In this document: positions 1 to 64,000 of the stretch, in pieces | How positions within the stretch are numbered: position 1 is the first letter of the stretch | How the letters are laid out: each line of letters opens with the position of its first letter | Assembly: GCA_965204755.1 (NCBI GenBank) | Contig: OZ242011.1 | Coordinates: 2,464,001-2,528,000 of the forward strand | Length of the DNA stretch: 64,000 nt | Direction of reading: 5' to 3' | From: Candidatus Marinacidobacterium sp. | GTDB lineage: Bacteria > Acidobacteriota > Vicinamibacteria > Marinacidobacterales > Marinacidobacteraceae | Notes under the pieces: model-generated | Seen by the model: only the letters and a program-made list of their open reading frames with translations | What the model was told of the DNA's origin: nothing | Database searches by the model: none | Made by a program: the position numbers and the translations under genes

Positions 1-5
1 GATTC

Positions 6-530
6 GTGTTCCTTGTACGCCGGATCCGCTTGGCGAAGTGGCCGAAGACCTACACCGAAGCGGCAGCCGGCCGCATTTCTGCGGATGCGATCACTGCCGA
101 CCTCCGCACCTCAGGGAATTGCCTGTCCTTCTGGACCTGCGATCGGGATGACCAGATCGAGAGCGTGGCGCTCGCGATCGCCGCGGCGGCAGACCGACTC
201 GACCGGATCGATGTCGTGTGGATCGAGGATGAGGAGCGCCGATTCTCCCGTTATCGACGGCTCTCGACACCGGGCGAGACACCGGTCGCGGAATGGAGAA
301 CGCGCCATCTGGACATCGCCGGCCTCGATCATGAGGGCTTGGGGGTCGTGGCGTTGGCGGTCGCCCGCTCCATTGCGGCGAAGCGCTGTCGCCGTTTGCC
401 GGCGCTCCGCGTGAAGGAACGGCTCGCAGATGCCGTTTCTGACGGCGCGTTGAGTTTGGATGCGCTCGATCCCCGGATTCGGGACAAAGTTCAGGCGACC
501 GTGGAGAGGCGGGAGGAGCCGCTGTCGTAG
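6..530 (+). CDS. Hypothetical protein (174 aa), lower GC than neighbours
   Basis: Clean ORF with globular composition (LVRRI...ADAITADLRTSGNCLSFW...GETP...HLDI); GTG start near the window edge, so the upstream context is unseen. Confidence 0.75.
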   Translation: MFLVRRIRLAKWPKTYTEAAAGRISADAITADLRTSGNCLSFWTCDRDDQIESVALAIAAAADRLDRIDVVWIEDEERRFSRYRRLSTPGETPVAEWRTRHLDIAGLDHEGLGVVALAVARSIAAKRCRRLPALRVKERLADAVSDGALSLDALDPRIRDKVQATVERREEPLS

Positions 531-554
531 TCGCGGTCTAATCTCCGGTTTCCC

Positions 555-3500
555 ATGCGGCCCCTCGCCCTCCTGCTCCTCCCGGCCGCGGCGGCCCTCG
601 CCCTCGCCCCGGCGGCCCGCGGACAGACACCGCCCCCCGACCCTGACGACCTCCACGCCCTCGAGTGGCGTTTCATCGGCCCCGACGGGAACCGGCTCAG
701 CGCCGCGGTCGGCGTCCCCGGAAACCCGGACATCACCTTCTTCGGCGCGGCTTCCGGCGGCGTCTGGCGCACCGACGACGGCGGCGTCACCTGGGCGCCG
801 GTCTTCGACGACCGGGACGCGGCCTCCATCAGCGCCCTCGCGGTCGCGCCGTCCGACCCGGCGCAGGTCTGGGCCGGAACCGGCGAGACCTTCATCATCC
901 GCCCGGCGCTCGCCATGGGGAACGGGATCTACCGCTCCACCGACGGCGGCCGCTCCTTCCACCACCGGGGCCTCGAAGCCACCGGCCGGATCGCCCGCAT
1001 CCTGGTCCACCCCCGGGACCCCGACCGGGTGTACGCCTGCGCCCTCGGCCACTCCTACTCACCGCAGCCGGAGCGCGGGGTGTACCGGACCACGGACGGC
1101 GGCGCGAACTGGGAACTGGTCCTCCACGCCGACGAACACACCGGCTGCTCCGACCTGGCGCTCGACCTGCGGAACCCGGACCGGATGCTCGCCGGGATGT
1201 GGCAACTCCGGATCGACACCGACGGCCTCCGGAGCGGCGGCCCGGGCAGCGGGATCTACCGCTCCGCCGACGGCGGAGACACCTGGGAACTCCTCTCCGG
1301 CGCCGGAAAGTCCCTCCCCGGCGGGGAAGACCACCCGATCGGGAAGGTCGCGGTGGCCATCGCCCCGAGCGAGCCCGACCGTTGGTACGCCCTGGTCGAG
1401 GACGAGAGCCCCGGCTTCTACCGCTCCGACGACGCCGGCGAGTCCTGGCGGCTCGTCCGCACCGACCACGACCTGGCGGAGCGCGCTCCCTACTATGTCC
1501 GCTTCGCGGTGGACTCCGGGGACGCCGACCGCCTCTACTTCGCCTCGGTGCTCTTCTCCACCTCGGTGGACGGCGGCGCCACGCTGGTGGAGACCTCCTA
1601 CCGGGCCGGCGGCGACAACCACGATGTCTGGGTGGATCCGCTCCTCCCCGGCCGCGTCCTGGTGGCCCACGACGGCGGCGGCAGCATCTCCCTCGACCGG
1701 GGCGCCTCCTGGCGCCGCGTCGTTCCGCCGGTCGCGCAGATGTACCAACTCACCGTGGACGACCGGATCCCCTACCGGGTGTACGGCAACCGCCAGGACG
1801 GCTACTCCTACCGGGGGCCCAGCCGCACGACGGGCGGCGGCATCCCGCTGGCCGCCTGGCAGGGGGTCGGCGGCTGCGAGAGCGGGTGGGCGACGCCGGA
1901 ACCCGGGAACGACCGGTTCGTGTGGTCCGGCTGCTACGACGGCGGCCTCGAGGTGTACGACGACGACACCGGCCACACCCGCGATGTCCGGGTCTGGCCG
2001 GAGGCCGGCTACGGCTGGGCGCCCGCGGACCTCGAAGTCCGCTGGCACTGGAACTTCCCGATGGTCCTGTCGAAGCACGAACCGGGAACCGTCTGGGTGG
2101 GCAGCCAGCAGGTCCACGAGAGCCGCGACCGGGGCCAGTCCTGGCGGCGGATCAGCCCCGACCTCACCACGAACGACAAGTCCCGGCAGCAGGACTCCGG
2201 CGGGGTCACCGTGGACAATCTCTACACCTTCGACGGGGCGGTGCTCTTCGCGCTCGCCGAGTCGCCGCTCGCGCCGGGCCAACTCTGGGCCGGAAGCGTG
2301 GACGGCAAACTCCACCTCACCACCGACGGCGGGGAGACCTGGCTCGACCGGAGCGCCGCGGTCCCGCTGGACGAGGGCGGCCTCGATGTGGAGAGTTGGA
2401 TCAAGTCCATCGAACCGAGCCATCACGATCCGGAGACCGCCTACCTGGCGGTCAGCCGTCACCAGCACGGCGACTTCCGCCCCCACCTGTTCCGCACCCG
2501 CGACCTCGGGGAGACTTGGGAACCCGTCGGCGCCGGCATCCCCGAGTCGCCCTTTTCGTTCGTCCATGTGATTCGCGAAGACCCGAAGCGCGCCGGGATG
2601 CTCTTCGCCGGAACCGAGAACCAGGTCTGGGCCAGCCTCGACGACGGCGGCTCGTGGTTCTCCCTGCGCCGGAACATGCCGCCCGCGCCGATCTACGGCC
2701 TGGCGGTCCAGGCGAGGTTCGACGACCTCGTGGCGGCGACCTACGGGCGCGGCTTCTACATCCTGGACGGCATCGGCCCGCTGCGGGAGATGGCGGCGCC
2801 GACCGACGACCCGTTGCGGGTGTTCGAGCCGCCGCCGGCTTGGCGCTTCCTGCCCCGGCAGGGCCCGAAGACCGAGCCGGGGAGCCTGGTGACCGGGCAG
2901 AATCCGCCCTACGGCGCGGCGATCTCCTACCGCATCGCGGCGGAAGCGGCGTCGGACGACCCGGCGAAGATCGAAATCCTGGACGAGGAGGGGGAGGTCT
3001 TGCGGACGCTCACCGGCCCCGGGGGCGCCGGGCTCCACCGCGTCCACTGGGATCTCCGCCGCGAGGCGCCGAAGCGCGCCACGCTGCGCACCCGCCCTCC
3101 CGACCGGGACTGGGTGCGGCTCGGGGAGGACGGCGAGAGGTCCATCCGCACCTGGGACCTGGACATCTTTCCCGGCTACCGGGGCGCGCTCGTTCCCCCG
3201 GGCGCCTACCGGGCGCGGGTGGCCGCCGCCGGCGAAACGGCCGAAGCCCCGGTCGAGGCGCGGAAGGATCCGGCGTCCGCCGGTACGCCCGAGGACATCC
3301 GGGAGCAGTACCGGTTCCTGCTCGCCATCCACCGGCAACTGGACCGGCTGGCGGAGATCGTGGACGAACTGGAATGGCTCCGGTTCGAGATCGAAGCGCT
3401 CGAGAAGCGTTACGCCGGGGATTCCCGATTCGAGGCGGTGCTGGAGAGCGCCGGCGAGATCGCCGGGACCGCCCTCGCCATCGAGGGGCGGTTCTTCGAT

Positions 3501-3815
3501 GTGGGGTTGACCGGCGCGCGGGAGGACGCCTTCCGGGCGCCGATGCGCCTCTACGGCCGCCTCGGCGCTTTGGCGAACGACGCCGGTTGGGACGGCGCCG
3601 ACTTCCGCCCGACCGACGCGCAGCGCGAGGTGCACCGGATCCTCACCGAGCGCTTCGAGGCGGCGGAGTCGGAGTACCGCCGTCTCACCGAAGAACTTCT
3701 TCCTCCGTTCTGGCGTTCCCTGGCCGAGGCGCGCGCCGCCGCGGCTCGTCCCGAGGAACGCCCGTCCGCTCCTCCGGGGTCGGCCGGCCCGTCCGCGCCG
3801 CCGGAGCCGCGATAA
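555..3815 (+). CDS. Secreted BNR/Asp-box repeat (VPS10/sortilin-like) glycosyl hydrolase-like protein
   Basis: Signal peptide; many S/T-x-D-G-G-x-T/S-W Asp boxes (TDDGGVTW, TTDGGANW, SADGGDTW, SLDDGGSW); WRFIGP N-terminal motif; C-terminal coiled coil. Confidence 0.9.
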   Translation: MRPLALLLLPAAAALALAPAARGQTPPPDPDDLHALEWRFIGPDGNRLSAAVGVPGNPDITFFGAASGGVWRTDDGGVTWAPVFDDRDAASISALAVAPSDPAQVWAGTGETFIIRPALAMGNGIYRSTDGGRSFHHRGLEATGRIARILVHPRDPDRVYACALGHSYSPQPERGVYRTTDGGANWELVLHADEHTGCSDLALDLRNPDRMLAGMWQLRIDTDGLRSGGPGSGIYRSADGGDTWELLSGAGKSLPGGEDHPIGKVAVAIAPSEPDRWYALVEDESPGFYRSDDAGESWRLVRTDHDLAERAPYYVRFAVDSGDADRLYFASVLFSTSVDGGATLVETSYRAGGDNHDVWVDPLLPGRVLVAHDGGGSISLDRGASWRRVVPPVAQMYQLTVDDRIPYRVYGNRQDGYSYRGPSRTTGGGIPLAAWQGVGGCESGWATPEPGNDRFVWSGCYDGGLEVYDDDTGHTRDVRVWPEAGYGWAPADLEVRWHWNFPMVLSKHEPGTVWVGSQQVHESRDRGQSWRRISPDLTTNDKSRQQDSGGVTVDNLYTFDGAVLFALAESPLAPGQLWAGSVDGKLHLTTDGGETWLDRSAAVPLDEGGLDVESWIKSIEPSHHDPETAYLAVSRHQHGDFRPHLFRTRDLGETWEPVGAGIPESPFSFVHVIREDPKRAGMLFAGTENQVWASLDDGGSWFSLRRNMPPAPIYGLAVQARFDDLVAATYGRGFYILDGIGPLREMAAPTDDPLRVFEPPPAWRFLPRQGPKTEPGSLVTGQNPPYGAAISYRIAAEAASDDPAKIEILDEEGEVLRTLTGPGGAGLHRVHWDLRREAPKRATLRTRPPDRDWVRLGEDGERSIRTWDLDIFPGYRGALVPPGAYRARVAAAGETAEAPVEARKDPASAGTPEDIREQYRFLLAIHRQLDRLAEIVDELEWLRFEIEALEKRYAGDSRFEAVLESAGEIAGTALAIEGRFFDVGLTGAREDAFRAPMRLYGRLGALANDAGWDGADFRPTDAQREVHRILTERFEAAESEYRRLTEELLPPFWRSLAEARAAAARPEERPSAPPGSAGPSAPPEPR

Positions 3816-3922
3816 CGGCCTGACCGGATGCCCTCCCCGCCTCTCCGCGCCGCCGCCCGTCCCCGTCCCGCCCGGCGGTTCGTCCGCCCCGCCGCGACCC
3901 ATCCGCGGCCGCCCGCGTCGAG

Positions 3923-5554
3923 TTGACCTCGCCTCCGCCCCCCCGCTTCGGGTTCCGCAACCTGGCGGCCTTCGCCGGGCTCGCGGCGTGGGCCTACTAC
4001 GCGGCGGTCTCCGAGGTGGACCTCGGCCTGCCCGGCGCCTCCGCCCGCGCCCTGATCGAGGGGCTCTCGTGGCAGGCGCTGTGGTTCGTCCCGGTGGGGG
4101 CGCTCTCCGCCCTGGCGCTTCCCCGGCCCCGCTCGCTCTTCTACCACTTGGTCTTCGGCTTCCTGCCGTCGGCGGCCCTCGGCGCGGTGGTCGTGGCGCT
4201 CATCGCCCAGGCCCCGGCGGAGGCCCCCTGGAGCGTCCTGGAGAACCCGACCGCGCCGCCCCTGCTGCCCCTGCTCGCGCCGCTGGCGGGGATGGTCATC
4301 GGGGCGCTCATCGGCCTGGTGCTGGCGCGCGGCGTCGGTTCCGCGCTGATGCTGATCCCGGTGCTGCTGGGGGTCGGGGTCGTCCTGGTGGCGATCGCCG
4401 CGGTGGCGCTCCTGCTGCTCACCGACCGGGTGGCGGTCGCGGAACCGTCCCGCCCGCCTGCGGACGGCGCCCTCTCCGCCCGGCTCCATCCGGGCGCCGG
4501 CGCCGCCGGGATCTCCTCGCTCTTCCAGAGCGCCCTGTTGCTGGAAGACGAGGAGTTGGAACTCGCGGTCTCGCTTCCCTGGGAAGCGCCGCTCCTCGGG
4601 GAGCGGTTCTTCAACTTCACCGCGACCGCGTCTCCCTGGATCGGCGCCACCCAGTTCCACGCCGGACTCCGCACGCTGTCGGTCGGCGGAGTCGGGCTGC
4701 CGCAGAGCGGGGTCCAACTGGCCTCCGACCTCCTGTCCCGTTGGTTGACCGGCGACCCGCTGGCGATGGGCGGCTCCGGCCTGGCGCCGGTGGAGTCGGT
4801 CTGGATGGACGGCTCGCGGGTGCTGGTCCGGCTGGCCGGGGAGGAGGCCGCGGAGGCGCTCGGCGCGCTCGCGCCGTCGGTCTCGTTCTATCTCGACTCG
4901 CTCTCCGGCGAAGCGGACGCCATCCGCGCCCGGCGAAGCCGGCTGGCCGCGGCCGTCGGACGGGCGTTCGCGTTGGCCCGGGGGCGTTCCGCGGAGGAGG
5001 GGGCGTTGGAGCAGAACCGCGCCGTCCTGCTCGCCCTCGGCGCCGCCGGGGGACATCCTTCGCTGCTGAGTCTCGCCGGAATGCCGGCGGCGGTGGAGCC
5101 CGCCCGCCGCCTCGGCGAGTCGCTCGGCCTCACCCTCCACGGGCGGAACGACTGGGCCCGCCATTTCCTGCTGAGCGCCGGACTGACCCAGGTCGGCGAA
5201 GGCGGCCTCACCGCCGGCGCCGGGCTGCTCAAGGAGCGCCTCGACGCCGCCCCCGGCGGGAGCGGCTTTTCGTTCACCGACCTCCTGATGGACGCCGCCG
5301 GCGCCCGCTTCGGCGCCGCCGCCACCGAGGACGAGCCCTCCGCCCGCGCGCTCCAGGCCCGCCTCGCGGAAGGCGTCACCGACGCCGACCTCGCCCCGTC
5401 GCCCATCGGAATCGCCGACCTCGCCCCGCCCGCCGGCGCGGAGGCCGGCGGCCCCCCGGCGGCCGAGTTGCTCGCCATGGAACGCGAGATCGCCCGCCGC
5501 GTGGACGCCCTCCACCTCTACCGCCCCGCCGAACCCCCCGAAGGCGACCGCTGA
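3923..5554 (+). CDS. Membrane protein with about 5 N-terminal TM helices and a C-terminal YfiM-like domain
   Basis: Hydrophobic N-terminal third; C-terminal motif DWARHFLLSA...GLLKERLDA..GGSGFSFTDLLMDAAG; TTG start uncertain. Confidence 0.7.
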   Translation: MTSPPPPRFGFRNLAAFAGLAAWAYYAAVSEVDLGLPGASARALIEGLSWQALWFVPVGALSALALPRPRSLFYHLVFGFLPSAALGAVVVALIAQAPAEAPWSVLENPTAPPLLPLLAPLAGMVIGALIGLVLARGVGSALMLIPVLLGVGVVLVAIAAVALLLLTDRVAVAEPSRPPADGALSARLHPGAGAAGISSLFQSALLLEDEELELAVSLPWEAPLLGERFFNFTATASPWIGATQFHAGLRTLSVGGVGLPQSGVQLASDLLSRWLTGDPLAMGGSGLAPVESVWMDGSRVLVRLAGEEAAEALGALAPSVSFYLDSLSGEADAIRARRSRLAAAVGRAFALARGRSAEEGALEQNRAVLLALGAAGGHPSLLSLAGMPAAVEPARRLGESLGLTLHGRNDWARHFLLSAGLTQVGEGGLTAGAGLLKERLDAAPGGSGFSFTDLLMDAAGARFGAAATEDEPSARALQARLAEGVTDADLAPSPIGIADLAPPAGAEAGGPPAAELLAMEREIARRVDALHLYRPAEPPEGDR

Positions 5555-5703
5555 GGATCCGGGACGAACGACCCGGACGGACGCAGAGGGCGGTCGTGTT
5601 CGTCGCCGCGAGAGTCCCGGTCAGGGACGATCTCCCCTTCGAGTTCGGCGTCACCTTCCATCAGTTGCCGCGGGAATCCGCCGCTCACGGGTACATCCGG
5701 TGA
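5555..5703 (+). pseudogene. Probable C-terminal remnant of a type III Mod methyltransferase
   Basis: Frame reads RIRDERPGRTQRAVVFVAARVPVRDDLPFEFGVTFHQLPRE..*; its TGA overlaps the Res start (GTGATG); resembles the LVFA...GITFCQLP tail recalled for Mod subunits preceding this Res type. Confidence 0.55.
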
Positions 5704-8237
5704 TGGAACTGAAGAAGTACCAGCGTGGGGCGCTGGCCGCGTTCGTCCGGTGGCGGGAAGGGCTGGAGGAAGCGCGGGAAGAAACCGGGAAGCGCGTGGC
5801 GGTGTTGGAGGAGGCGGGGATGTCCGTGTCGGAGGGTGACCGGAATTTCCCGCGCCGGGCGTGGAAGCGGTTCTGCGAAACGGAGGAAGGCGGGGCGCGG
5901 AGGCCGCATGTGGATCGGGCGGACGAGGCCGGGCGTCCGATTCCCCACATCTGCTTCAAGATCCCGACCGGCGGCGGCAAGACGCTCCTCGGCGCGGCGG
6001 CGCTGGGGCGGCTGCGGGAGCAGACCGGCCTCGTCCTGTGGATCGTGCCCAGCCGGGCCATCTACGCGCAGACGAAGGCTGCCTTCTGGAACAAGGAGCA
6101 TCCGTACCGGCAACTCTTGGAGCGGGAAACCGGCGGTCGCGTGAAGGTGCTCGAGAAAGACGACCGGTTCACCGCGAACGACCTCGAACACCACTTCTGC
6201 CTGATGCTCCTGATGCTGCCGGCGGCCAACCGGCAGAAGGGCCGGGAGTTCCTGCGAATGTTCCGCGACTCCGGCCGCTATCCCACGCTCTTCCCCGACG
6301 CCGGCGACGAACCGGCGAACGATGCCCTGCGCGACCGATTCCCGGATCTCGACCTCCATGACGATCATTCGGTCAAACACAGCCTCTTCAATGTGTTCAA
6401 GATGAGCCGGCCGGTGGTCGTCCTCGACGAGGCGCACAAGGCTTACGGAGGCAAGGGCGCGCGGGAATTCGTCCGATCGGTCAACCGCCTCGACCCCCGC
6501 CTGGTGATCGAACTGTCGGCCACGCCGAACGCGGCCGTCAGCAATCTCCTGGTGGACATCTCGGGCGTGGATCTCAAGAAGGAACAGATGATCAAGTTGC
6601 CCGTGGAAGTCACCGCCGTGAGTGACACGGGCTGGCGCGAGACGCTGGCGCTGGCGCACGCCCGCCTCGAGGAGTTGACGGAAGAGGCCGGCGCGCTCGA
6701 AGGCGCCGAGGGACGGTATATCCGGCCCATCGCCGTCGTGCGGGTGGAGCGAACCGGGAAGGACCAGCGTGACGGCGTGCGGGTCCACGCCGAGGATGTG
6801 CGGGAGCGGCTGACTCGCTACCTGGCCGTACCCGAGGAGGCCGTGCGCGTGAAGTCGGCGGCGCAGGACGAAATCGCCCGCGAGGACCTCCTCTCGAAGT
6901 ACTCGCCGGTGCGCTGGATCATCACCAAGGCGGCGTTGATGGAGGGGTGGGACTGCCCCTTCGCCTATCTCCTGGTGATGCTGGACAACACCCGGAGCGA
7001 GCGGGCGCTGACCCAACTCGTCGGCCGGGTGATGCGCCAGCCGTACGCCCGGCGAACGGGCCGGGCCGCGCTCGACCGGTGCTATGTGCATAGTTGGCAG
7101 ACCGCCGTGGACACCGCGATACGCCAGGTCAAGGCCGGACTGGAGCACGAAGGGCTCACCGGCCTCGGCGGCGATGTGACCGCGGTCGGCGCGGCCCTTC
7201 CGGAACGCGTGACGGTGCGCCGCCAAGCAAAATTCCGGAACCGGCAGATCTTCCTGCCCCTGGTGCTCCATCGCCGGGGAGAGGGTGATTGGTCGGATCT
7301 CGACTATCAGCGACACATCCTGCCGGAGATCCCGTGGGGCGATCTCGAAGCCACGGTCGCTTCGGAACTTCCGACCACCCGGGACGGAGCGGTCGCCGAG
7401 ACCGTCGTCGTCGGTCTCGGCGACGAGGAGTCGGAGCCGGCGCGGCGGGCGAAACTCGAAGTGGACACCACGATCACCGTCGAGTGGTTCGCGCGGCAAC
7501 TCGCGGATCTCATCCCGAACCCGTGGCAGTCGGCGCGACTCGCCGGCGAGGTCATCGAACGGCTTCGCGCGCGGCTCGCCGCCCACGACCTCGGGGACGA
7601 CGAGTTCTACGCCCAGCGCCGGGCGCAGTTGTTCGCGCTGCGTCGGGGACTGGAGGAGCAGATCGGATGTTTCGCGGAACAGGTATTCCGGCGCAAGTTG
7701 AAAGACGGTGAGATCCGATTCGATCTCCTGGCCAGCGAGCCGAACTTCCGGGTCGTGGAGGGCTTCGAGCGCGACCTGCTGCCGGACGACCGCACGCTCG
7801 AACGCCGACCGGGCGCACCGGCGCAGAAGAGCCTGTTCGAGGCCCCCATCGAGCGCGATTTCAACGGTCTGGAAAAGAAGTTCGCCTTCTACCTGGACCA
7901 GCGGGCGGCGATCTCGTGGTGGCACCGCGTGGCCGTCCGGCAACAGCACGAGTACTACCTTCGCGGCTGGAACCGGGACCGGATCTGGCCGGACTTCGTC
8001 GCCATGTCGGACGAGCCGGACGGCAGTCGGCGCCTGTTCGTCTTCGAGACGAAAGGGACGCATCTCGAAGGCAACGAGGACACCGAGTACAAGCGCAGCG
8101 TGTTCGCCACGCTCGAGGAGTGGTTGGACCGCGAGGACACTTACGAGTGCGGGGCCGTGGAACTCGAACGGGGCGCGGAGACCGCCAAGTTCCGGCTCGT
8201 GTTCAACGAGGAGCGGTTCGACGAAGCGCTCGCGTGA
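5700..8237 (+). CDS. Type III restriction enzyme Res subunit (SF2 helicase + PD-(D/E)xK nuclease)
   Basis: Walker A PTGGGKT, Walker B LDEAH, LSATP, MEGWD, QLVGRVMR; C-terminal WPDF...FETKG nuclease motif. Confidence 0.88.
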   Translation: MMELKKYQRGALAAFVRWREGLEEAREETGKRVAVLEEAGMSVSEGDRNFPRRAWKRFCETEEGGARRPHVDRADEAGRPIPHICFKIPTGGGKTLLGAAALGRLREQTGLVLWIVPSRAIYAQTKAAFWNKEHPYRQLLERETGGRVKVLEKDDRFTANDLEHHFCLMLLMLPAANRQKGREFLRMFRDSGRYPTLFPDAGDEPANDALRDRFPDLDLHDDHSVKHSLFNVFKMSRPVVVLDEAHKAYGGKGAREFVRSVNRLDPRLVIELSATPNAAVSNLLVDISGVDLKKEQMIKLPVEVTAVSDTGWRETLALAHARLEELTEEAGALEGAEGRYIRPIAVVRVERTGKDQRDGVRVHAEDVRERLTRYLAVPEEAVRVKSAAQDEIAREDLLSKYSPVRWIITKAALMEGWDCPFAYLLVMLDNTRSERALTQLVGRVMRQPYARRTGRAALDRCYVHSWQTAVDTAIRQVKAGLEHEGLTGLGGDVTAVGAALPERVTVRRQAKFRNRQIFLPLVLHRRGEGDWSDLDYQRHILPEIPWGDLEATVASELPTTRDGAVAETVVVGLGDEESEPARRAKLEVDTTITVEWFARQLADLIPNPWQSARLAGEVIERLRARLAAHDLGDDEFYAQRRAQLFALRRGLEEQIGCFAEQVFRRKLKDGEIRFDLLASEPNFRVVEGFERDLLPDDRTLERRPGAPAQKSLFEAPIERDFNGLEKKFAFYLDQRAAISWWHRVAVRQQHEYYLRGWNRDRIWPDFVAMSDEPDGSRRLFVFETKGTHLEGNEDTEYKRSVFATLEEWLDREDTYECGAVELERGAETAKFRLVFNEERFDEALA

Positions 8238-8343
8238 CCCGGTCGTCTCGCCCGGGCGGGCGGTCGAACTCCGGCGGGCATCGGCGGCCTCCGCGGGCTC
8301 CGCGACAGTCGGGAGGCGCCGGTCGAGCGACTGTGTTTCGGCG

Positions 8344-9273: not shown

Positions 9274-9290
9274 GTCCGCGCGGCGCGGAA

Positions 9291-9320
9291 TTGACAGCGC
9301 GCCGCGGCGGGCGTACGAAT
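9291..9320 (+). promoter_or_regulatory. Putative sigma70 promoter for the small protein-heme oxygenase unit
   Basis: Perfect TTGACA (9291-9296), 17-nt spacer, imperfect -10 TACGAAT, about 10 nt before ATG 9330. Confidence 0.5.
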
Positions 9321-9329
9321 TCCACCCCC

Positions 9330-10155: not shown

Positions 10156-10251
10156 CCCTCCGGCTGCCGGGCGCGCCCCGGCGGACGGGCGCTCGCTCCG
10201 CGGCGCGCCCGCCCCCGAAACCACGCCGGGAGGGCGCCCCGGCCGCGTCTT

Positions 10252-47499: not shown

Positions 47500-48273
47500 G
47501 TGCTCGCCGTGCGGCCGCCGAGCAAGATCCTGTGCGTCCACCTCAACTACCGCAGCCGCGTCGAAGAGTTCGGCGCCCGGCTGCCGGCCGCGCCGACCTA
47601 CTTCATGAAGCCGCCCAGCGCGCTCCTCGGCGACGGTGAGCCGGTGGTGCGCCCCCCGGGTTGCCGCTACCTCAATTTCGAGGGGGAGATCGTGGCCGTG
47701 ATCGGGCCGCCGGACGGGGCGCCGCCCCCGGGCTGGCGCTGCCGGAACATCGAGCCGGAGGACGCCGGGCGCTTCATCCACGGTTACACGGTCGGCAACG
47801 ACTTCGGCCTCCACGACTTCCGGGACACCGACGCCGGCTCGATGCTCCGCGTGAAAGGCGCCGACACCCTCTGTCCCGTTCTCGACGCCGCCGGCGCCCC
47901 CTGGGATTTCCGCGGCCGGACGATCCGTACTTCGGTGAACGGCGAAGTCCGCCAATCCGGCTCCACGGACGAGATGCGCTGGGACCCCCACTACCTGGTG
48001 GCCGATCTCTCCCGCACCCACACCCTGCTCCCCGGCGACTTGGTGTTCACGGGAACCCCCGCCGGCTCCCGCCCGGTCGAGCCCGGCGACGAAGTGGTCG
48101 TGGAGGTGGAGGGCCTCGGTCGCCTCCGCAACCCGGTCGTCGAGACCGGGCCGCCCCTCCCGTCCGGCTACGGCGCCCAGCCCACCGACTCCGAGGAAGT
48201 GCGTTCCACCGCCTTCGGCGGCGACTGGGAATTCCGCGGCGCGCGGCCCCCGCGGAAGGACTCCGCCCGATGA
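47500..48273 (+). CDS. Fumarylacetoacetate hydrolase family protein
   Basis: SKILCVHLNY, YFMKPPS, NFEGEI, GYTVGND, KGADT, PGDLVFTGTP. Confidence 0.92.
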   Translation: MLAVRPPSKILCVHLNYRSRVEEFGARLPAAPTYFMKPPSALLGDGEPVVRPPGCRYLNFEGEIVAVIGPPDGAPPPGWRCRNIEPEDAGRFIHGYTVGNDFGLHDFRDTDAGSMLRVKGADTLCPVLDAAGAPWDFRGRTIRTSVNGEVRQSGSTDEMRWDPHYLVADLSRTHTLLPGDLVFTGTPAGSRPVEPGDEVVVEVEGLGRLRNPVVETGPPLPSGYGAQPTDSEEVRSTAFGGDWEFRGARPPRKDSAR

Positions 48274-49064
48274 GCGCGAACGCCGCCCGCCCCCGGATCG
48301 GCCTCACCTCCTGGAAGCGCCCGGTGAAGACCCAGGTCGGCGACCCGGAGCAACTCTTCACCCTCGCCGAGGAGTATGTGGACGCCGTCCGGCGCGCCGG
48401 CGGCCTCCCGGTGATCCTGCCCCCGGCGCCGCTGGCCGCCGCCGCCGAAGCGATGGCCATGCTCGACGGCCTGATCCTGACCGGAGGCGGCGACATCGCC
48501 CCTGCCGCTTACGCGGCCCGGGACGAAGGCGTCAGCCTCGATGTGGACCCGGCCGAGGACGCCTGGGACATCGCCCTGGTCGCCGCCGCCCGGGACGCCG
48601 GGAAACCCTTCTTCGGCATCTGCCGAGGAATGCAGGTCCTGAATGTGGCCTTGGGGGGCACGCTCCGGCAGGACATCTGCGGCACCGAGACCCACCCGCC
48701 GATCTCCGAGGTCCCCGCCGAGGCGGTGGGTTTCCGCCACCCGGTCGCGATCTACCCCGGCACCCGCCTGCACCGCTTGCTAGACGCCTCCGAACTCTCG
48801 GTGAACAGCATCCACCACCAGGCGGTGGCGCAGCTCGGCGACGGACTGCGCCCCGCCGCCGAAGCCCCGGACGGCACCGTGGAGGCCCTGGAGTACGACG
48901 ACTCCCGAAACGGCGCTTCGTGGTCGGCGCTCGCCGTCCAGTGGCACCCGGAACGCCTCCCCGAAGGCCCCGACCAACGCCTCTTCGACGACCTCCTCGA
49001 ACGCGCGGCCCGCGCGTCCGTGGCTCGCGGCATCGGCATGGCGCTGCCGGGAGCCACGCCATAG
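48270..49064 (+). CDS. Gamma-glutamyl-gamma-aminobutyrate hydrolase family protein (peptidase C26, PuuD-like)
   Basis: GLILTGGGD, GICRGMQVLNVALGGTL, VNSIHHQA, VQWHPE; ATG 48270 overlaps the upstream stop. Confidence 0.92.
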   Translation: MSANAARPRIGLTSWKRPVKTQVGDPEQLFTLAEEYVDAVRRAGGLPVILPPAPLAAAAEAMAMLDGLILTGGGDIAPAAYAARDEGVSLDVDPAEDAWDIALVAAARDAGKPFFGICRGMQVLNVALGGTLRQDICGTETHPPISEVPAEAVGFRHPVAIYPGTRLHRLLDASELSVNSIHHQAVAQLGDGLRPAAEAPDGTVEALEYDDSRNGASWSALAVQWHPERLPEGPDQRLFDDLLERAARASVARGIGMALPGATP

Positions 49065-52736: not shown

Positions 52737-52859
52737 GGGGTCTCTTTCCTTTCGTCGGTCGGAATCAGGAGCGGCGGTCGAGGGGCCGGAACGGCGCCGA
52801 CGCGAGATCGGCCCGCCGTGCCGCCGACCGGTCGGCCGCGCCGACAACGCCGACGCCGG

Positions 52860-56032: not shown

Positions 56033-56052
56033 CGCGCGGCCGGGGTGTCCGC

Positions 56053-58295: not shown

Positions 58296-58314
58296 GGGAT
58301 CTACGGGAGGGGAC

Positions 58315-58857
58315 TCAGCCCGCCGCTCCGGCGGCGGGGGGCGACGGGGAGGCGCTCGGCAGGCGCGGGAAGGCCGCGCGGGCGGGGGGCGGCGCCGGCG
58401 CGGCGGCCTCCGGCGGGGCAGGGGAGTCGTCGGGGAACTCCTCGGGAAAGTCCGCGCCGGGCAGCAGGTGCGAGAGCGTCAGGCGGGAGAGCGTCCTGGC
58501 CACCAGGTCGTGGACCCGTTGGAGCGGCCCGCGCACGCAGCAGGTCGGGGTGAGCGAGCAGTTGTGCTCGTCGAGGCCGCATTCCACGAGCGCCAGCGGC
58601 CCCTCCACGGCCTCGATGACCTCGATGAGCGGGACTTCGCCCGGGGGCCGGGCCAGCCGATACCCCCCCAGGACTCCCTGGCGCGTGCTGACCAGTCCCG
58701 CTCGCCGCAGCCCCTGCAGGATCTTGGCGATCAGGTCCGCCGGGAGACCCCGGCCGGCGGCGACCCGCCGCGCGCTGAGCGTCTCGTCAGCCGGGAGCGC
58801 CGCCAGGTCCGAAAGAGCCATCAGGGCGTAGTCGGTGCTCCGGGAGAGACGGATCAT
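58315..58857 (-). CDS. Rrf2-family (IscR/SufR-like) transcriptional regulator
   Basis: TDYAL, KILQGL..AGLV...[16 protein letters not shown], Cys cluster [16 protein letters not shown]. Confidence 0.93.
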
Positions 58858-59081
58858 GAAAGTGGGCGGAGTGGCGTGGGGCGGGAACGGGGAGAAGCGC
58901 GGGGAGAAGGTCGGGAAGGAGGGCGGGCGAGAGGCGGCGACCCCGGGGCGGGAGGAGGGGAGCGACCCGGCGCGGAGCCGCGTCGAAACGGAGCGCCCGG
59001 CCCCCGGCTCTCCGGGGGTTCGGCCCCGGCGGGGCCGTCGGGGAACTGGGAAGGAACGACGCCGGGCTCGATCGCCCGGTG

Positions 59082-59132
59082 AATTGCGACCCGAAGAGTC
59101 CTATTTTACCTGCGCCCCGGCGGGGCGGTCAA
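59082..59132 (-). promoter_or_regulatory. suf operon promoter with overlapping IscR-type operator
   Basis: Minus strand TTGACC (59127-59132)-N18-TAAAAT (59103-59108); overlapping AATTGC-GAC-N7-GTC-CTATTT (59082-59106). Confidence 0.7.
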
Positions 59133-59259
59133 ACCCCGTTGGCGCGCTCCCGCCGGGCGCGGCCCGTTCCCGAACCGTCTCCCCGAACTGTCTCGTTGCC
59201 GCCGGAACGGTAGCCGCGCCGCGCCTCCCCTCCGCCGGCTTCGTACACTGCCTCGCCGC

Positions 59260-60159
59260 ATGGCGCGCCGCCCCGCTCCCGCCCCGCCTGCCGGAACCCC
59301 GGCCGGGACCCCGGCCGACGCCTCGGCCGGGGCCGCGTCCGACCCCGCCGTCCGGCGGGACCGCCGAACCAGGCGCGGCCGCGGCCCTTGGGCGGCCCCG
59401 AAGACCGCCCGCGCCGCGACCCGCCGGGATTCCGAGCCCGGCGACGGTCCGGAACCGGCCGCCCCGGACCCCGGGGCGCCGGACTGGAAGCGGGCGACCG
59501 CCGCCCTCTCGCGGCGCGACCCGGCGCTCCGCGCCCTGATCCGGCGCGTCGGCCCCTGCACGCTCGCGCCCCGCGAGAACTCCTTCGGCGGGCTGGCCGG
59601 CGCCATCGTCGCCCAGCAGATCTCCGCCGCCGCCGCCACCACGATCCACACCCGCCTCTGGAGCCTCACCGGCGGCCGCCCGCCGACGCCGGAGGACCTC
59701 CTGCGCCGCCGCGAGACGACGCTCCGGCGGGTGGGCCTCTCCCGCCAGAAGATCGCCTACCTCCGCGACCTGGCCCGCCGGGTCCGCGACGGCGTCCTCG
59801 ACTTGGCGGCGCTCCCCGGCCTCCCCGACGACGAAGTGCGCCGGGAACTCACCGCCGTCCGCGGGATCGGCCGGTGGACCGCCGACATGCACCTCATCTT
59901 CACCCTGAACCGCCCCGATGTGTTCGCTCCGGGCGACGCCGCCGTCCTCGCCGCCATGCGCGACCTCTACCGCCTCCCGGAAGACGCCCCCGCCGAGACC
60001 TACGAGGAAATCAGCGCCCGCTGGCGCCCCTACCGCAGCGTCGGCGTCTGGTACATGTACGAACACCTCCACGCCCTCCGCGCCGCCGCCCGCGGGGCGC
60101 CCCCGCCGGCGCCGCGCGACCGGGCGGCGCCGGCTACACTCACGGGCAACCGTGGGTGA
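59260..60159 (+). CDS. DNA-3-methyladenine glycosylase II family (AlkA-like, HhH-GPD)
   Basis: AIVAQQIS..AA, GLSRQK..Y, LTAVRGIGRWTADM, RPDVF..GD, WRPYRS; start uncertain. Confidence 0.9.
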   Translation: MARRPAPAPPAGTPAGTPADASAGAASDPAVRRDRRTRRGRGPWAAPKTARAATRRDSEPGDGPEPAAPDPGAPDWKRATAALSRRDPALRALIRRVGPCTLAPRENSFGGLAGAIVAQQISAAAATTIHTRLWSLTGGRPPTPEDLLRRRETTLRRVGLSRQKIAYLRDLARRVRDGVLDLAALPGLPDDEVRRELTAVRGIGRWTADMHLIFTLNRPDVFAPGDAAVLAAMRDLYRLPEDAPAETYEEISARWRPYRSVGVWYMYEHLHALRAAARGAPPPAPRDRAAPATLTGNRG

Positions 60160-60325
60160 ACCTCGAACCTTGAACCTGTCTTTTTCTACTCAAGGAGTCG
60201 AGGCCATTGCGCTGGCGACCTCACCGGCGCTTCCCCGCGCGGGAAGCGCGATTCGGGGCTCTGAGGCCCCCCTTTTCGACCGCGGCTTCGGCCGCCGGAA
60301 CCTCCGCGGCGACTCGCGGAGGCGG
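60147..60325 (+). ncRNA. Candidate structured RNA/leader of unknown family
   Basis: TACACT -10-like hexamer at 60135-60140 followed by five consecutive hairpins including a cUUCGg tetraloop; no known family recognised. Confidence 0.4.
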
Positions 60326-60376
60326 CCGCCGGCCCGGCCCGCCGGCCTTCCCGTCCGCCAACCACCGGAGGCCGGC

Positions 60377-60727
60377 ATGCCCCGGTTCCTGATCGTCGTG
60401 GCCGCTGTCGGCGGACTCTGCGGGGTGGCCGCGCTGCTGCTCGGCGTCCTCGCCCTGCCCATGGGGCTACCGGCGCCCCTGCTCGCCGAGCGGCTCTACA
60501 GCCAAGTCTCGCTCCACCTCTGGTTCGTCGAAATCCTCCTGATCCTGGTCGCCGTCGGCGCGGCGGTCTTCGGGTTGGCCGGCTACCAGTCCATCCGGGA
60601 AGTCGCCGCCACAATGGCCCGCGCCGAGGCCCGCCGCGTGGCCTCGGCGCAAATGGTGGAACACCGCAGGAGCCTTCGCCGCGGCCTCGGCGAGGGGGAG
60701 ACCAACGACGAGAAAGGAACGGAGTAA
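60377..60727 (+). CDS. Small two-TM hypothetical protein
   Basis: RBS GGAGG; two hydrophobic helices, then FGLAGYQSIREVAATMARAEA helix; stop 5 nt before the IrrE-like gene. Confidence 0.75.
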   Translation: MPRFLIVVAAVGGLCGVAALLLGVLALPMGLPAPLLAERLYSQVSLHLWFVEILLILVAVGAAVFGLAGYQSIREVAATMARAEARRVASAQMVEHRRSLRRGLGEGETNDEKGTE

Positions 60728-60732
60728 CGCCC

Positions 60733-61215
60733 ATGGCCCTGCCCAAGATCCACATGGAGATCATCCGCGAGTACCAGCGGAAGGTGCCGGTCGCGGTGGA
60801 CGAGATCGCGAAGGAACTCGGGCTGAAGTCGTACTGGGGGATCTGGGACAACGGCGCGTCCGGCCGCATCGCCAAGGACCGGAAGAAGGGCGGGAAGAGC
60901 GGTTACGCCCTCATCGTCAACCGGGACCACTCGCCGGAGCGCCGGCGGTTCACCGTCGCCCACCAGATCGCCCACTTCCTCATGCACAAGAAGGAAATGG
61001 GCGACAGCCTTGTCGACGACTCGCTCTACCGGAGCAAACTGGGCGGCCCGTACGAAGTGGCGGCCAACGACTTCGCGGCCTGGCTCCTCATGCCCTGGAA
61101 CATGATCCTGCACGAAGTGGCCTGCGGCGCGGAGACCGTCGAGAAGTTGGCGAAGATCTTCCAAGTCTCCAACAGTTGCATGGCCGTTCGCCTCGGCTTC
61201 CCGTTCGAGGACTGA
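60733..61215 (+). CDS. ImmA/IrrE-family (peptidase M78-like) protein, copy 1, HExxH changed to HQIAH
   Basis: PVAVDEIAKELGL, ASGRI, IVN..HSPERRRFTVAHQIAHFLMH, E..ANDFAAWLLMP, LAKIFQVS..MAVRL. Confidence 0.9.
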   Translation: MALPKIHMEIIREYQRKVPVAVDEIAKELGLKSYWGIWDNGASGRIAKDRKKGGKSGYALIVNRDHSPERRRFTVAHQIAHFLMHKKEMGDSLVDDSLYRSKLGGPYEVAANDFAAWLLMPWNMILHEVACGAETVEKLAKIFQVSNSCMAVRLGFPFED

Positions 61216-61257
61216 CCGGGCCGGTGCAAGATCGCCCGGCCTCGCGCCGGGCCGGCG

Positions 61258-61317
61258 TCGGTCCGGCCGCTTCGCGACCCGGAGGCAGGGCTTGCCGGTC
61301 TTCCGGCCTTCGGGGGA
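61258..61317 (-). pseudogene. Decayed duplicate of the peroxiredoxin 3' end
   Basis: 51/60 nt match to 61973-62032; reads SPEGRKTGKPCLRVAKRPDR versus FPEGWKTVKPYLRVVKQPD*. Confidence 0.85.
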
Positions 61318-61417
61318 CCCGCCCTTCGCGCCGCCGCCCGCCGCCCGCCGGCCGCGGCCGCGCCTCCGCTGCCGGCGGCGGGATGCCGACCATGAGTAGA
61401 GTGACGGGGGAACACCC

Positions 61418-61900
61418 ATGACCATGCCCAAGACCCACATGGAGATCATCCACGAGTACCAGCGGACGCTGCCGGTCGCGGTGGACGAGATCGCGAAGGA
61501 ACTCGGGCTGAAGTCGTACCGGGGGATCTGGGACAACGGCGCGTCCGGCCGCATCGCCAAGGACCGGAAGAAGGGCGGGAAGAGCGGGTACGCCCTCATC
61601 GTCAACCGGGACCACTCGCCGGAGCGCCGGCGGTTCACCGTCGCCCACCAGATCGCCCACTTCCTCATGCACCAGAAGGAAATGGGCGACAGCCTCGTCG
61701 ACGACTCGCTCTACCGGAGCAAACTCGGCGGCCGGTACGAAGGCGAGGCGAACGACTTCGCGGCCTGGCTCCTCATGCCCTGGAACATGATCCTGCACGA
61801 GGTGGCCTGCGGCGCGGAGACCGTCGAGAAGTTGGCGAAGATCTTCCAGGTCTCCAACAGTTGCATGGCCGTCCGCCTCGGCTTCCCCTTCGAGGACTGA
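61418..61900 (+). CDS. ImmA/IrrE-family protein, copy 2, also HQIAH
   Basis: About 20 nt and 11 aa differences from copy 1 over 483 nt (manual count). Confidence 0.9.
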   Translation: MTMPKTHMEIIHEYQRTLPVAVDEIAKELGLKSYRGIWDNGASGRIAKDRKKGGKSGYALIVNRDHSPERRRFTVAHQIAHFLMHQKEMGDSLVDDSLYRSKLGGRYEGEANDFAAWLLMPWNMILHEVACGAETVEKLAKIFQVSNSCMAVRLGFPFED

Positions 61901-61941
61901 CCCGGTCGGCGCGGGATCGCCCGGCCCCGCGCCGGGCGGGC

Positions 61942-61977
61942 GGCGTCAGTGGCGGGCGTCAGTGGGCGGGCGTCAGT
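61942..61977. repeat. GGCGTCAGT x3 spanning the peroxiredoxin stop codon
   Basis: Copies at 61942, 61955 and 61969. Confidence 0.75.
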
Positions 61978-62632
61978 CCGGCTGTTTCACGACCCGGAGG
62001 TAGGGCTTGACGGTCTTCCAGCCCTCGGGGAAGCGCTCGCGGGCCGCTTCGTCCGAGACGGCGGGGACGATGATGCAGTCCTCGCCGGCCTTCCAGTCCG
62101 CCGGGGTGGCGACCTGGTGCTTCGCGGTGAGTTGGAGCGAGTCCACCACGCGAAGCAACTCGTCGAAGTTGCGGCCGGTGGCCATCGGGTAGGTGAGGAT
62201 CAGCCGGATCCGCTTGTCCGGCCCGATGATGAAGACGCAGCGCACGGTCAGGTTGTCCGCCGCCGTCCGCTCCCCGGCGCGCCCGAGCGCGTTCGGATGG
62301 ATCATGTCGTACAACTTGGAGACCCGCAGGTCCTCGTCGCCGATCATCGGGAAGTCGGGGGCGGCGCCCTGCGTCTCCTCGATGTCCTTCGACCAGGCGC
62401 GGTGGTCCTCCACCGAGTCCACGCTCAGCCCGATGAGCCGGACGCCGCGCCGCTCGAACTCCGGCTTCAGCCGGGCGGCGGTCCCGAGTTCGGTGGTGCA
62501 GACCGGGGTGAAGTCCTTGGGGTGGGAGAAGAGGATCGCCCAGGAGTCGCCGAGCCACTCGTGGAAGCGGATCTCCCCGTCGGTGGTGTCCTGGGTGAAG
62601 TCGGGGGCGACATCTCCGATGCGCAGCGCCAT
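61973..62632 (-). CDS. 1-Cys peroxiredoxin (Prx6 family)
   Basis: FSHPKDFTPVCTTE, GLSVDS, TVRCVFII, YPMATGRNFDELLR, VATPADW, KPYLR; RBS AAGGAG. Confidence 0.96.
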   Translation of the reverse strand: MALRIGDVAPDFTQDTTDGEIRFHEWLGDSWAILFSHPKDFTPVCTTELGTAARLKPEFERRGVRLIGLSVDSVEDHRAWSKDIEETQGAAPDFPMIGDEDLRVSKLYDMIHPNALGRAGERTAADNLTVRCVFIIGPDKRIRLILTYPMATGRNFDELLRVVDSLQLTAKHQVATPADWKAGEDCIIVPAVSDEAARERFPEGWKTVKPYLRVVKQPD

Positions 62633-62724
62633 GGCGGAACTCCTTGGGTCGGGCCGAATGAGGGGCCCTCGGGGGGCCGGCGTTCCCCGCCGTCCCGGGG
62701 GGACGATCGGGGGCGCCGCCGACT

Positions 62725-63708
62725 CTACCGCGCCGCCCGGCGGCCGGCCTCGCCGGGATCGGGCCGCGCCGCGGCGGACACTCCCGCCGCCATCCCCAAG
62801 TCGAAGAGGCGCTCCGCCCGATCCTCGAAGCGCTCCCGCCAAGCCAACTTCGCCAGCCAGGCCCCGGGGATGCCGCTTCGCCCCCACAGCGCCCCGGCCA
62901 ACTGGCCGGTCACCGCGCCCACCGTGTCGGCGTCGCCGCCGAGGTTGACCGCCTCGACCACCGCCTCCCGGAACGAGCCGGCCCGGGAGACCGCCCACAG
63001 CGCCGCCTCCAGCGTGTGGATCACATAGCCGCTGGAGGAGATCCCGTCCCGCGTCTTCTCCCGGAACGAGCCGGCGGCGATTTCGGCCACCCCGCCCCCG
63101 GCCCGGCCCTCCCGGGGGCGCAGCACGGTGTCCGCCGGGGCGCCGGCGATCGCCTCCACCAGCAATTCGACGAAGTACGCGCACGCTTCCACCGCCTCCT
63201 CCGCGCCGTGCGTGGTCCGGCTCTGGAGCCGGGCGGCGGCCTGCGCCGCCGGGAGGTCGCTCCACCAGCGGACTGCCACCGGGGAGAGCCGCATCAGCGA
63301 CCCGTTCCCCGCCGAGCGCGGATCCGCGCTCCCGGCCAGCGGCGCCCCGGTCCGCTCGAACCGGGCGAGCGCCGCCGCCGTCGTCCCCCCGATGTCGAAG
63401 CAGTGTCCGGTGGCCGAGTTCTCGCCGTCCTTCCACCAGCGGACGAATCTCCTCATCAGGTCCCCGGGGTCGAGGCCCCGCTCCGCGCCGCCCTCGACCA
63501 GGGAGTCCGCGAGGCAGAGCGCCATGCTCGTATCGTCGGTCCACTCTCCCGCCGCCAGCCCGAACGGCCCACCGCCGACGAGGTCGGTGACCCGCGGAAC
63601 GCTGTCCCGCGCCGCGAATTCGAGGGTCGTTCCCAGCGCGTCCCCGACCGCCAGCCCGAGCAGGGCGCCGACGGCCCGATCCTTCGCCGCCGCTTCCTCC
63701 GGTCGCAT
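62725..63708 (-). CDS. ADP-ribosylglycohydrolase family protein
   Basis: GLAVGDALG, GEWTDDTSMA, CFDIG, AGNGSLMR, SGYVIHTLEAA, NLGGDADTVGAVTGQLAG; start 63708 or up to 63945. Confidence 0.93.
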   Translation of the reverse strand: MRPEEAAAKDRAVGALLGLAVGDALGTTLEFAARDSVPRVTDLVGGGPFGLAAGEWTDDTSMALCLADSLVEGGAERGLDPGDLMRRFVRWWKDGENSATGHCFDIGGTTAAALARFERTGAPLAGSADPRSAGNGSLMRLSPVAVRWWSDLPAAQAAARLQSRTTHGAEEAVEACAYFVELLVEAIAGAPADTVLRPREGRAGGGVAEIAAGSFREKTRDGISSSGYVIHTLEAALWAVSRAGSFREAVVEAVNLGGDADTVGAVTGQLAGALWGRSGIPGAWLAKLAWRERFEDRAERLFDLGMAAGVSAAARPDPGEAGRRAAR

Positions 63709-64000
63709 CGCCGCCGCGGATTCTCCCACCGGGGCAGGTGAGGGGCCCGGCCGGGCCCGGACGGCCCCGGCGGATGCCGCCGCCCGCCGCCCGCCGCCCG
63801 CCGCCCCGCCGGCGGCGCTTCCCGCTTTCGGCGGCGCTCTCCGCCGCCGGCGGGGCTCCGCACATGCGGCGGCGCTCCGCGCTTCCGGCCGGCGCTTCCC
63901 GCGTTCGGCGGGGCTCCCCGCCACCGCCGGCGCTCCTGACATCATTTCCGCGCGCCGCCCCGCCGGAACCGCGCCCCGGGCGGCCCGCCCGGCCGCCCGG

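Follow-up and report, generated by a model that had tools for sequence, protein, structure and literature searches.

Why would an ordinary stretch of bacterial chromosome almost lack two short palindromes, AGCT and ACGT? The stretch in question comprises 64,000 nucleotides of Candidatus Marinacidobacterium sp. (assembly GCA_965204755.1, contig OZ242011.1, positions 2,464,001 to 2,528,000), and we refer to the whole of it, positions 1–64000, as the window. By its gene content the window is unexceptional: Pfam analysis of 28 open reading frames (ORFs) returned SecA, IMPDH, SufBD, purine and amino-acid enzymes, and a few defence-like genes. We propose, with a probability of about 0.65, that AGCT and ACGT have been purged by selection against restriction sites and that restriction is the likely agent.

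Two tetranucleotides are missing from the window and from the genome

A full count finds one AGCT in the window, at 48832–48835, and no ACGT, which is exactly what a first-pass annotation, made by reading the sequence, had reported. Base composition predicts 160.3 copies of each word, close to the 150 or so that the annotation had estimated, and a second-order Markov model predicts 111.3 AGCT and 95.2 ACGT; the Poisson probabilities of the observed counts are 5e-47 and 5e-42, respectively. The near-absence holds on both strands and, with the exception of the single AGCT, each of the eight 8-kb blocks of the window contains zero copies of each word against 9–16 expected. The sole AGCT lies on the forward strand in frame 2, where the word starts at codon position 2 of CAG CTC (Gln-Leu), within an ORF at 47661–49064 that has a high GC content at third codon positions (GC3; frame-wise 0.86–0.94) and ends at 49064. 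The other words noted earlier behave as described: GATC (417 copies), TCGA (476), GTAC (99), and TGCA (61) are common, and CTAG occurs several times, although its 4 copies are roughly 10-fold under the Markov value of 45.

The window is typical of its genome rather than special. This genome, here called G000 (the window is G000:C1:2464001-2528000), is a single contig of 3,975,858 bp with a GC content of 71.7%, and under the Markov model it contains 265 ACGT where 7,147 are expected (0.037) and 332 AGCT where 7,446 are expected (0.045). When all 256 tetranucleotides are ranked by under-representation, ACGT and AGCT head the list and CTAG comes third (385 versus 2,942). The comparison of exact counts with Markov expectation that the first-pass annotation had proposed thus yields values far below expectation both in the window and in the whole genome. 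Every hexamer context of AGCT and of ACGT is equally rare in G000, and therefore the avoided unit is the tetranucleotide itself.

Codon choice is reshaped in every reading frame

To what extent does the avoidance reach into the genes? Using our own crude GC3-based caller, we defined 1,905 ORFs covering 70% of the genome, and we carried out all codon analyses on 1,852 high-GC3 ORFs from which the first 60 codons were trimmed. Relative to codon-shuffled expectation, AGCT is found 14 times against 1,239 in frame 1, 32 against 4,405 in frame 2, and 10 against 206 in frame 3; the corresponding values for ACGT are 17 against 1,301, 39 against 3,123, and 12 against 189. Summed over frames, there are 56 AGCT versus 5,850 expected and 68 ACGT versus 4,613, an approximately 100-fold depletion, and frame 2 holds about 70% of the expected coding sites.

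These losses are visible as obligatory codon choices. Ahead of Val, Asp is encoded by GAC 16 times and by GAT 1,637 times; likewise, Asn is AAC 10 times and AAT 688 times, His is CAC 5 times and CAT 542 times, and Tyr is TAC 8 times and TAT 712 times. Outside the pre-Val context, the T-ending synonyms GAT, AAT, CAT, and TAT account for just 6–15% of use. Similarly, Glu, Lys, and Gln before Leu are spelled NAA-CTN or NAG-TTR throughout the genome; for Glu-Leu the counts are 13 for GAG-CTN, 3,000 for GAA-CTN, and 1,035 for GAG-TTR. When the next codon begins with T, Ser is AGC in 14 cases and AGT in 1,226 (261 AGT expected), and Thr is ACC in 2,764 cases, ACT in 786, and ACA in 71. Following A, GCT makes up 10 of 5,125 Ala codons (0.2%, versus 3–11% after other bases) and CGT makes up 12 of 4,371 Arg codons (0.3%, versus 3–9%). 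The rerouting of codon pairs that was first noticed in the window (Asp, His, Tyr, or Asn before Val; Glu, Gln, or Lys before Leu; Ser before T) is therefore real genome-wide, and the accompanying claim that codon usage has been reshaped even in accessory genes holds for synonymous choice, including in the accessory-looking genes of the window. We also note that ACT supplies 21.6% of Thr codons before a T-starting codon and 0.6–5.9% in other contexts; the displaced ACG has been replaced in part by the rare T-ending ACT, through a G>T change, and not by ACC alone.

The avoidance is not confined to ORFs. In 734 short inter-ORF gaps (97.5 kb) there are 14 AGCT versus 121 expected and 4 ACGT versus 119, that is, 9-fold and 30-fold fewer, and across the non-ORF gaps the observed-to-expected ratios of the two words are 0.03–0.12. 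The depletion in frame 3 and in non-ORF DNA requires selection against the word itself.

The depletion is lineage-specific and ancestral sites have been lost

How widely is the depletion shared? We sampled 2.5–20 kb from each of 39 genomes of the same order. Both words are depleted in just one of them, the same-genus relative G001. G005 and G007, from two other genera of the family, are poor in ACGT but not in AGCT, as second samples and one additional locus confirmed (observed/expected ACGT: 4/25, 3/29, and 2/21 in G005; 8/28 and 6/29 in G007). The remaining 36 of the 39 are near expectation, the lowest other value being 27/57 for AGCT in one G014 sample. Over 80 kb of synteny with the window, the counts are 17 AGCT and 16 ACGT in G001 and 162–257 of each word in four outgroup genomes. 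The depletion is thus specific to the lineage and varies among close relatives. A SecA tree of 23 of the 25 genomes considered (G033 and G025 were left out) did not settle whether the ACGT-poor genera form a single clade, the relevant supports being 0.34–0.39. When SecA was compared with named genomes, the best identity was 65%, to MAGs labeled as Acidobacteriota. As a separate observation from the same phylum, many 4-bp palindromes look scarce together in G293, a 2.1-Mb genome of about 37–40% GC: samples totaling about 17 kb contain 1 ACGT where 15 are expected, and GGCC, CATG, TCGA, CGCG, and AGCT are also low.

We aligned 16 syntenic genes (26 kb) by codon across G000, G001, and four outgroups (G004, G008, G014, and G018) and took as ancestral sites the words common to at least two outgroups, which gave 49 AGCT and 59 ACGT. 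None of them survives in G000 (0/49 and 0/59), and in G001 the survivors are 0/49 and 3/59, respectively, compared with survival of 19–64% at such positions for 17 control tetranucleotides. Replacements other than transitions of the central CG or GC account for 17 of the 49 AGCT sites and 30 of the 59 ACGT sites. Because third-position identity to the outgroups is just 55–60%, synonymous sites are near saturation, and the spectrum of replacements largely reflects an equilibrium choice and not single mutation events. At 33 ancestral AGCT sites with two synonymous escapes, AACT or AGTT, G000 and G001 agree at 20 and differ at 13. We estimate that independent choice would give agreement at about 17, and the concordance suggests that the pressure to purge went on separately in the two genomes; it is not conclusive for parallel loss, because the two states interconvert via AATT.

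Restriction as the probable selective agent

What selects against these words? The effect is specific to two words, independent of reading frame, present in non-ORF DNA, and restricted to a lineage, and we therefore conclude that the words themselves are counter-selected. Long-standing restriction pressure is most likely the selective agent and is the best available explanation. Restriction-modification (R-M) repertoires are lineage-specific and the depletion is lineage-specific likewise, which fits restriction. We propose that the lineage has carried, or has continually met, Type II-like (orthodox) endonuclease activities recognizing AGCT and ACGT over a long time. Each site would then pose a small risk of self-cutting whenever methylation lags, so that site-destroying mutations would be favored. 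As proteins must be kept, removal would proceed mostly by synonymous changes, with the choice of replacement set by the genetic code and by a third-position bias that strongly favors G or C. Sites would persist where function forbids change, as in ribosomal RNA (rRNA) genes, transfer RNA (tRNA) genes, and a repeated motif resembling a binding site, and recently acquired DNA would still carry them. The responsible enzymes may be present in an unrecognized form or may have been lost recently.

Avoidance of restriction sites has reportedly been described in earlier work by Gelfand and Koonin and by Rocha et al. According to a later survey by Rusinov et al. (2015; PMC4687349), about 50% of the 1,774 site-genome cases examined for orthodox Type II systems show avoidance caused by the system, and the avoidance is stronger for long-resident systems and can outlive a system that has been lost. 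The G000 purge shares several features with restriction-site avoidance: short palindromes are strongly under-represented relative to a Markov model, the effect belongs to particular lineages and is not the same in close relatives, it may outlast the system, and constrained and newly acquired DNA retains sites. It departs from the usual pattern in that two 4-bp words have been purged together, leaving 0.04 of the expected copies genome-wide and about 0.01 of them in coding DNA, in that the genome's own EcoRII-type system causes no avoidance, and in that cognate systems were not found. The G000 purge is thus a known phenomenon carried, for a genome of 4 Mb and 72% GC, to an extreme. The literature searched, which largely left subscription journals aside, yielded no earlier description of AGCT and ACGT being avoided together in a bacterium.

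The genome is rich in candidate modification enzymes. The search for C5 methyltransferases that the first-pass annotation had called for finds six PF00145 genes, all outside the window, five of which have a Vsr gene within about 5 kb. Other methylase domain matches number 28 for PF01555, 14 for PF02384, 18 for PF07669, and 6 for PF02086, and there are 6 matches to Vsr. Judged from such matches, the load of DNA methylase and defence genes in G000 is unusually large. Methylases considered as candidates for the two words include MT2 (1860840-1861886), MT3 (1262788-1263828), MT4 (2392933-2394102), and MT6 (about 1519900-1521071). The methylase neighborhoods also hold MADS3-, PtuAB-, DUF1156-, IteA-, DGQHR-, SoFic-, and HEC-type genes.

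Several observations weigh against restriction by a resident enzyme pair, and we gather them here. No cognate enzyme pair was found: the methylases that we followed up are either family-wide or have homologues in non-depleted genomes or contigs. Among the ORFs adjoining methylases (sets of 15, 15, 68, and 37), NCBIfam and PADLOC models of Type II nucleases gave no convincing match; the matches obtained were EcoRII, one Type III nuclease, and weak matches. Libraries of methylase families returned generic names alone ("C-5 cytosine methylase", "Type II methyltransferase") and no assignment to AGCT or ACGT. The failure to find a nuclease is itself weak evidence, because many Type II nucleases belong to no recognizable family. 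In addition, an intact-looking EcoRII-type system at G000:C1 1048601-1051082, consisting of an EcoRII-like nuclease and the C5 methylase MT1 with a Vsr gene about 2.5 kb away, coexists with 13,097 CCWGG sites versus 13,983 expected (0.94). We take EcoRII-type systems to target CCWGG. Carrying a system therefore does not guarantee avoidance, and this one is either recently acquired or of low self-toxicity.

Five methylases or cassettes were traced across genomes as candidates for AGCT or ACGT, and three of them have homologues in outside genomes or contigs that show no depletion. First, a cassette at G000:C1 1518922-1521781 encodes a 240-amino-acid DUF6339-like protein (ORF260), the C5 methylase MT6, and Vsr, and it is shared by the ACGT-poor genomes G000 and G005, with a distant version in G001. 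However, we counted 47 metagenome contigs, each at least 5 kb long, with a gene for an ORF260 relative; 42 of them encode an MT6-like methylase as well (44–64% identity), and none of the 47 is depleted in ACGT. MT6 was accordingly rejected as the ACGT methylase. Second, a cassette on the reverse strand at G000:C1 1259158-1263828 encodes the C5 methylase MT3, PDC-M33A, PDC-M33B, DUF6339, and Vsr, and among 41 genomes searched it occurs in G000 and G001 alone. The same five genes, with a methylase 60% identical to MT3, are found in G298 and G389, whose AGCT and ACGT counts are normal, and the cassette was set aside as the AGCT system. Third, the genomes that carry a PF01555 methylase located at 1033879-1035120 in G000 coincide, within the set of 41, with the four that are poor in ACGT, the G005 copy being a 125-residue fragment alone. 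A 66%-identical copy exists in G113, where ACGT is normal, and the word counts of G084, a genome of the same genus as G113 that lacks the gene, look the same as those of G113. No nuclease gene adjoins this methylase, whose family is very widespread at 63–72% identity under generic names alone.

The other two of the five, a PF01555 methylase (at 2357113) and a Type II methylase (at 304621), were discarded because they are conserved across the whole family, non-depleted members included. Another PF01555 methylase, at 2194157, was rejected as well, being present also in three non-depleted genomes of genus g6. X2, a 330-amino-acid neighbor of the methylase MT2, gives a weak PADLOC match to REase_II (E 2e-4) and has more than 1,200 unnamed homologues, none of them in 400 genomes of the phylum or in viral contigs. 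The C5 methylase MT5 lies with Vsr at G000:C1 2903799-2908435 beside an 804-amino-acid protein that weakly matches the BbrUII/HgiDII family (70 bits versus a cut-off of 550). In G000, GTMKAC is avoided 5-fold (553 versus 2,751), GTCGAC occurs 416 times versus 2,076 expected, and CTATAG 9 times versus 66; a BbrUII/HgiDII-like activity of the MT5 neighbor would fit the avoidance of GTCGAC/GTMKAC. MT1 and MT5 therefore have plausible targets other than AGCT and ACGT.

Some details of these cassettes deserve mention in their own right. The apparent 726-amino-acid MT6 ORF includes an N-terminal extension of about 350 residues (1518891-1519900) that is a spurious alternative frame; it shows 60% "identity" in a relative owing to conservation of the genuine gene that it overlaps. 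Long spurious ORFs of this kind arise at 72% GC from alternative frames that lack stops. The ORF260-type cassette is widespread in metagenome contigs (80 loci), and the 47 contigs of at least 5 kb share no common avoided palindrome. ORF260 has no PADLOC match and no sequence match in the PDB. Its AlphaFold model is all-alpha with a predicted local distance difference test score (pLDDT) of 92.6; Foldseek found no PDB structure at E≤0.001, and the best VIA-align Z score, 6.6, is within helical noise. As modeled, ORF260 does not look like a PD-(D/E)xK nuclease. In the MT3 cassette of G000, the DUF6339 gene contains an in-frame TGA, Vsr is truncated, and an IS1634-family transposase has inserted just downstream; beyond the transposase lie a duplicated DUF6339 tail and an intact Vsr. 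DUF6339 appears to belong to PDC-M33, a PADLOC candidate system, without being listed there.

The first-pass annotation had attributed the pattern to long-standing restriction or methylation by AluI-like and MaeII- or HpyCH4IV-like enzymes, or by one multispecific enzyme. Restriction pressure survives as the best explanation, but none of these enzymes could be tied to the two words.

Possible agents other than a classical R-M pair

Could something other than a resident classical R-M pair have counter-selected the two words? Such an agent might take the form of an unrecognized 4-bp defence nuclease, of neighbors' enzymes met during DNA exchange in a dense community, or of an unexplained process like the one in pandoraviruses. 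We consider this unlikely, although it is the strongest of the competing accounts. That five methylases or cassettes could be traced across genomes without yielding a cognate pair speaks for it, as does the separate and continued pressure suggested by the AACT/AGTT concordance of G000 and G001. As a lead only, sequencing runs labeled as marine or sponge metagenomes contain 66–86% of the rRNA-operon words; R-M systems are reportedly enriched in sponge symbionts, which is likewise no more than a lead. In the other direction, two palindromic tetranucleotides, strict specificity, a patchy distribution among genera, and a methylase-rich genome are what ordinary Type II avoidance would produce.

The comparison with pandoraviruses is instructive. 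According to the preprint by Poirot et al. (bioRxiv 10.1101/712018), AGCT has been wholly eliminated from clade-A pandoravirus genomes of up to 2.5 Mb, the cause is not known, and R-M explanations were rejected on the basis of digestion and PacBio data. As in G000, AGCT is fully or nearly gone from large GC-rich genomes, the replacements are varied and non-directed, and the loss is clade-specific. The patterns differ in that ACGT is abundant in these viruses of eukaryotes (about 5,800–6,200 copies), whereas G000 is a methylase-rich bacterium that has lost both words.

A narrower version of this idea is that the purge stems from a restriction or defence activity with a 4-bp target that is not yet recognized, as opposed to classical AluI- or MaeII-type enzymes. 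We regard this as somewhat more doubtful still. One possibility is that a methylase-linked cassette (C5 methylase, DUF6339, PDC-M33A/B, and Vsr) supplies such an activity; another is community pressure during DNA exchange.

Deamination and sequencing error as improbable causes

Could mutation alone have removed the words? If AGCT and ACGT carried 5-methylcytosine (5mC), spontaneous deamination (C>T, G>A) could have eroded them in the absence of selection, as it has eroded CpG in vertebrate genomes; the Dcm/Vsr biology of enterobacteria is the other familiar setting for 5mC decay. The first-pass annotation had read a 5mC-deamination signature into the substitutes AGTT/AACT and ATGT/ACAT. G000 encodes six C5 methylases, central transitions make up 32 of 49 replacements at ancestral AGCT sites and 29 of 59 at ACGT sites, AGT supplants AGC before T, and AGTT/AACT is mildly in excess in non-ORF DNA (1.69). 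The purge thus resembles CpG-type decay in that transitions are the commonest replacements of the central CG or GC and in that C5 methylases and Vsr are present.

Selection, however, predicts the same transitions. In frame 2 the synonymous exits are NAC>NAT, NAG>NAA, and CTR>TTR, all of them transitions; NAC-GTN has one synonymous change available, NAG-CTN has two transitions, and AGC reaches another Ser codon in one step via AGT. As the genetic code leaves no synonymous exit but a transition in frame 2 and from AGC, finding C>T products is not diagnostic of a mutational signature. No excess of C>T or G>A is found beyond what the code forces, AGTT/AACT being the one partial exception, and ATGT/ACAT is not over-represented outside ORFs (0.84). 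Three synonymous codons are open to Thr before T, yet ACA, the deamination product, is the one avoided. Polarizing substitutions with relatives, which the first-pass annotation had suggested, bears out a near-total loss of ancestral sites; where the choice is free, ACA stands at 0 of 24 ancestral ACG-T sites in both G000 and G001. At equilibrium, the missing ACA does not strictly exclude deamination.

The remaining evidence points the same way. Frame-3 sites, which a transition can remove just by changing an amino acid, have not been retained and are still down 16–20-fold. Five of the six C5 methylases have a nearby gene for Vsr, which repairs the T:G mismatch left by 5mC deamination. CCWGG, which has a C5 methylase of its own, has not decayed in parallel, and its deamination products are not in excess. 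A 100-fold depletion would, by our reckoning, demand a rate of loss about 100 times the rate of gain. Unlike CpG-type decay, then, the purge is frame-independent, hits sites that deamination cannot silently remove, shows no excess of ACA-T, and is far stronger. The proposed deamination signature is not supported, and we judge deamination without selection to be improbable.

Finally, long-read consensus errors concentrate at methylated motifs, and systematic base-calling error could in principle have turned the words into others, but we dismiss a sequencing or assembly artefact because the replacements keep the reading frame and are mostly synonymous, with G>C and G>T changes among them, because rRNA and tRNA genes retain sites, and because the same depletion is seen in independently assembled relatives, one of them a 410-contig assembly.

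Where the words persist

Which sites have escaped? Of the 597 residual sites in G000, 401 fall in 49 clusters that together span 248 kb, mostly at 59–69% GC, and 194 of 398 10-kb bins have no site at all. The single rRNA operon forms the biggest cluster (24 AGCT and 6 ACGT), and its 16S gene retains GACGTCAAGTC. The tRNA genes carry 27 AGCT and 5 ACGT. A further 69 AGCT lie within a repeated motif, AATTGTGTATAG(CT), present in 100 copies as paired arrays at nine loci. Constraint and recent arrival account for most residual sites. The presence of about 600 sites implies that the cell now tolerates them, and therefore that they are methylated or that the nucleases are gone.

The motif AATTGTGTATAG is an AT-rich 12-mer followed by CT in 69 of its 100 copies, and it holds about one-fifth of the remaining genomic AGCT. 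Each locus consists of two same-orientation arrays of 4–8 copies, spaced by about 20–31 bp and flanking a segment of about 200 bp; in this arrangement the arrays look like iteron or operator arrays. The nine loci lie on G000:C1 at 357894-358232, 756031-756420, 1207950-1208339, 1659955-1660352, 2045499-2045907, 2895447-2895804, 2970772-2971125, 3119130-3119618, and 3494175-3494697. A search of these loci with Rfam gave no family match, with the exception of one unrelated tRNA.

Within the window itself, we note two adjoining 160-amino-acid IrrE-like (Peptidase_M78) paralogues on the forward strand, at 60733-61215 and 61418-61900, in which GC at codon positions 1 and 2 is unusually low.

Implications

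The genus offers a very clean natural case of "taboo words": in a genome of 4 Mb, the coding DNA has about 1% of the expected number of two 4-bp palindromes. A same-genus relative shows a lesser purge, and non-depleted sister genera can serve as the ancestral reference. Together they allow one to measure the speed and the routes of word loss, the distortion of codon usage, and the places where functional constraint (in rRNA, tRNA, and a repeated motif) wins out over avoidance. In set contexts, otherwise rare codons, GAT, AGT, GAA, and TTG among them, are compulsory, and the sites that remain point to DNA of recent arrival. AluI- and MaeII-type barriers are to be expected in any attempt to clone from or transform this lineage. 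The finding would gain considerably in value if non-classical enzymes prove to be responsible, and if the agent is one that has so far gone unrecognized, the genus would be a tractable bacterial counterpart of the AGCT elimination seen in pandoraviruses.

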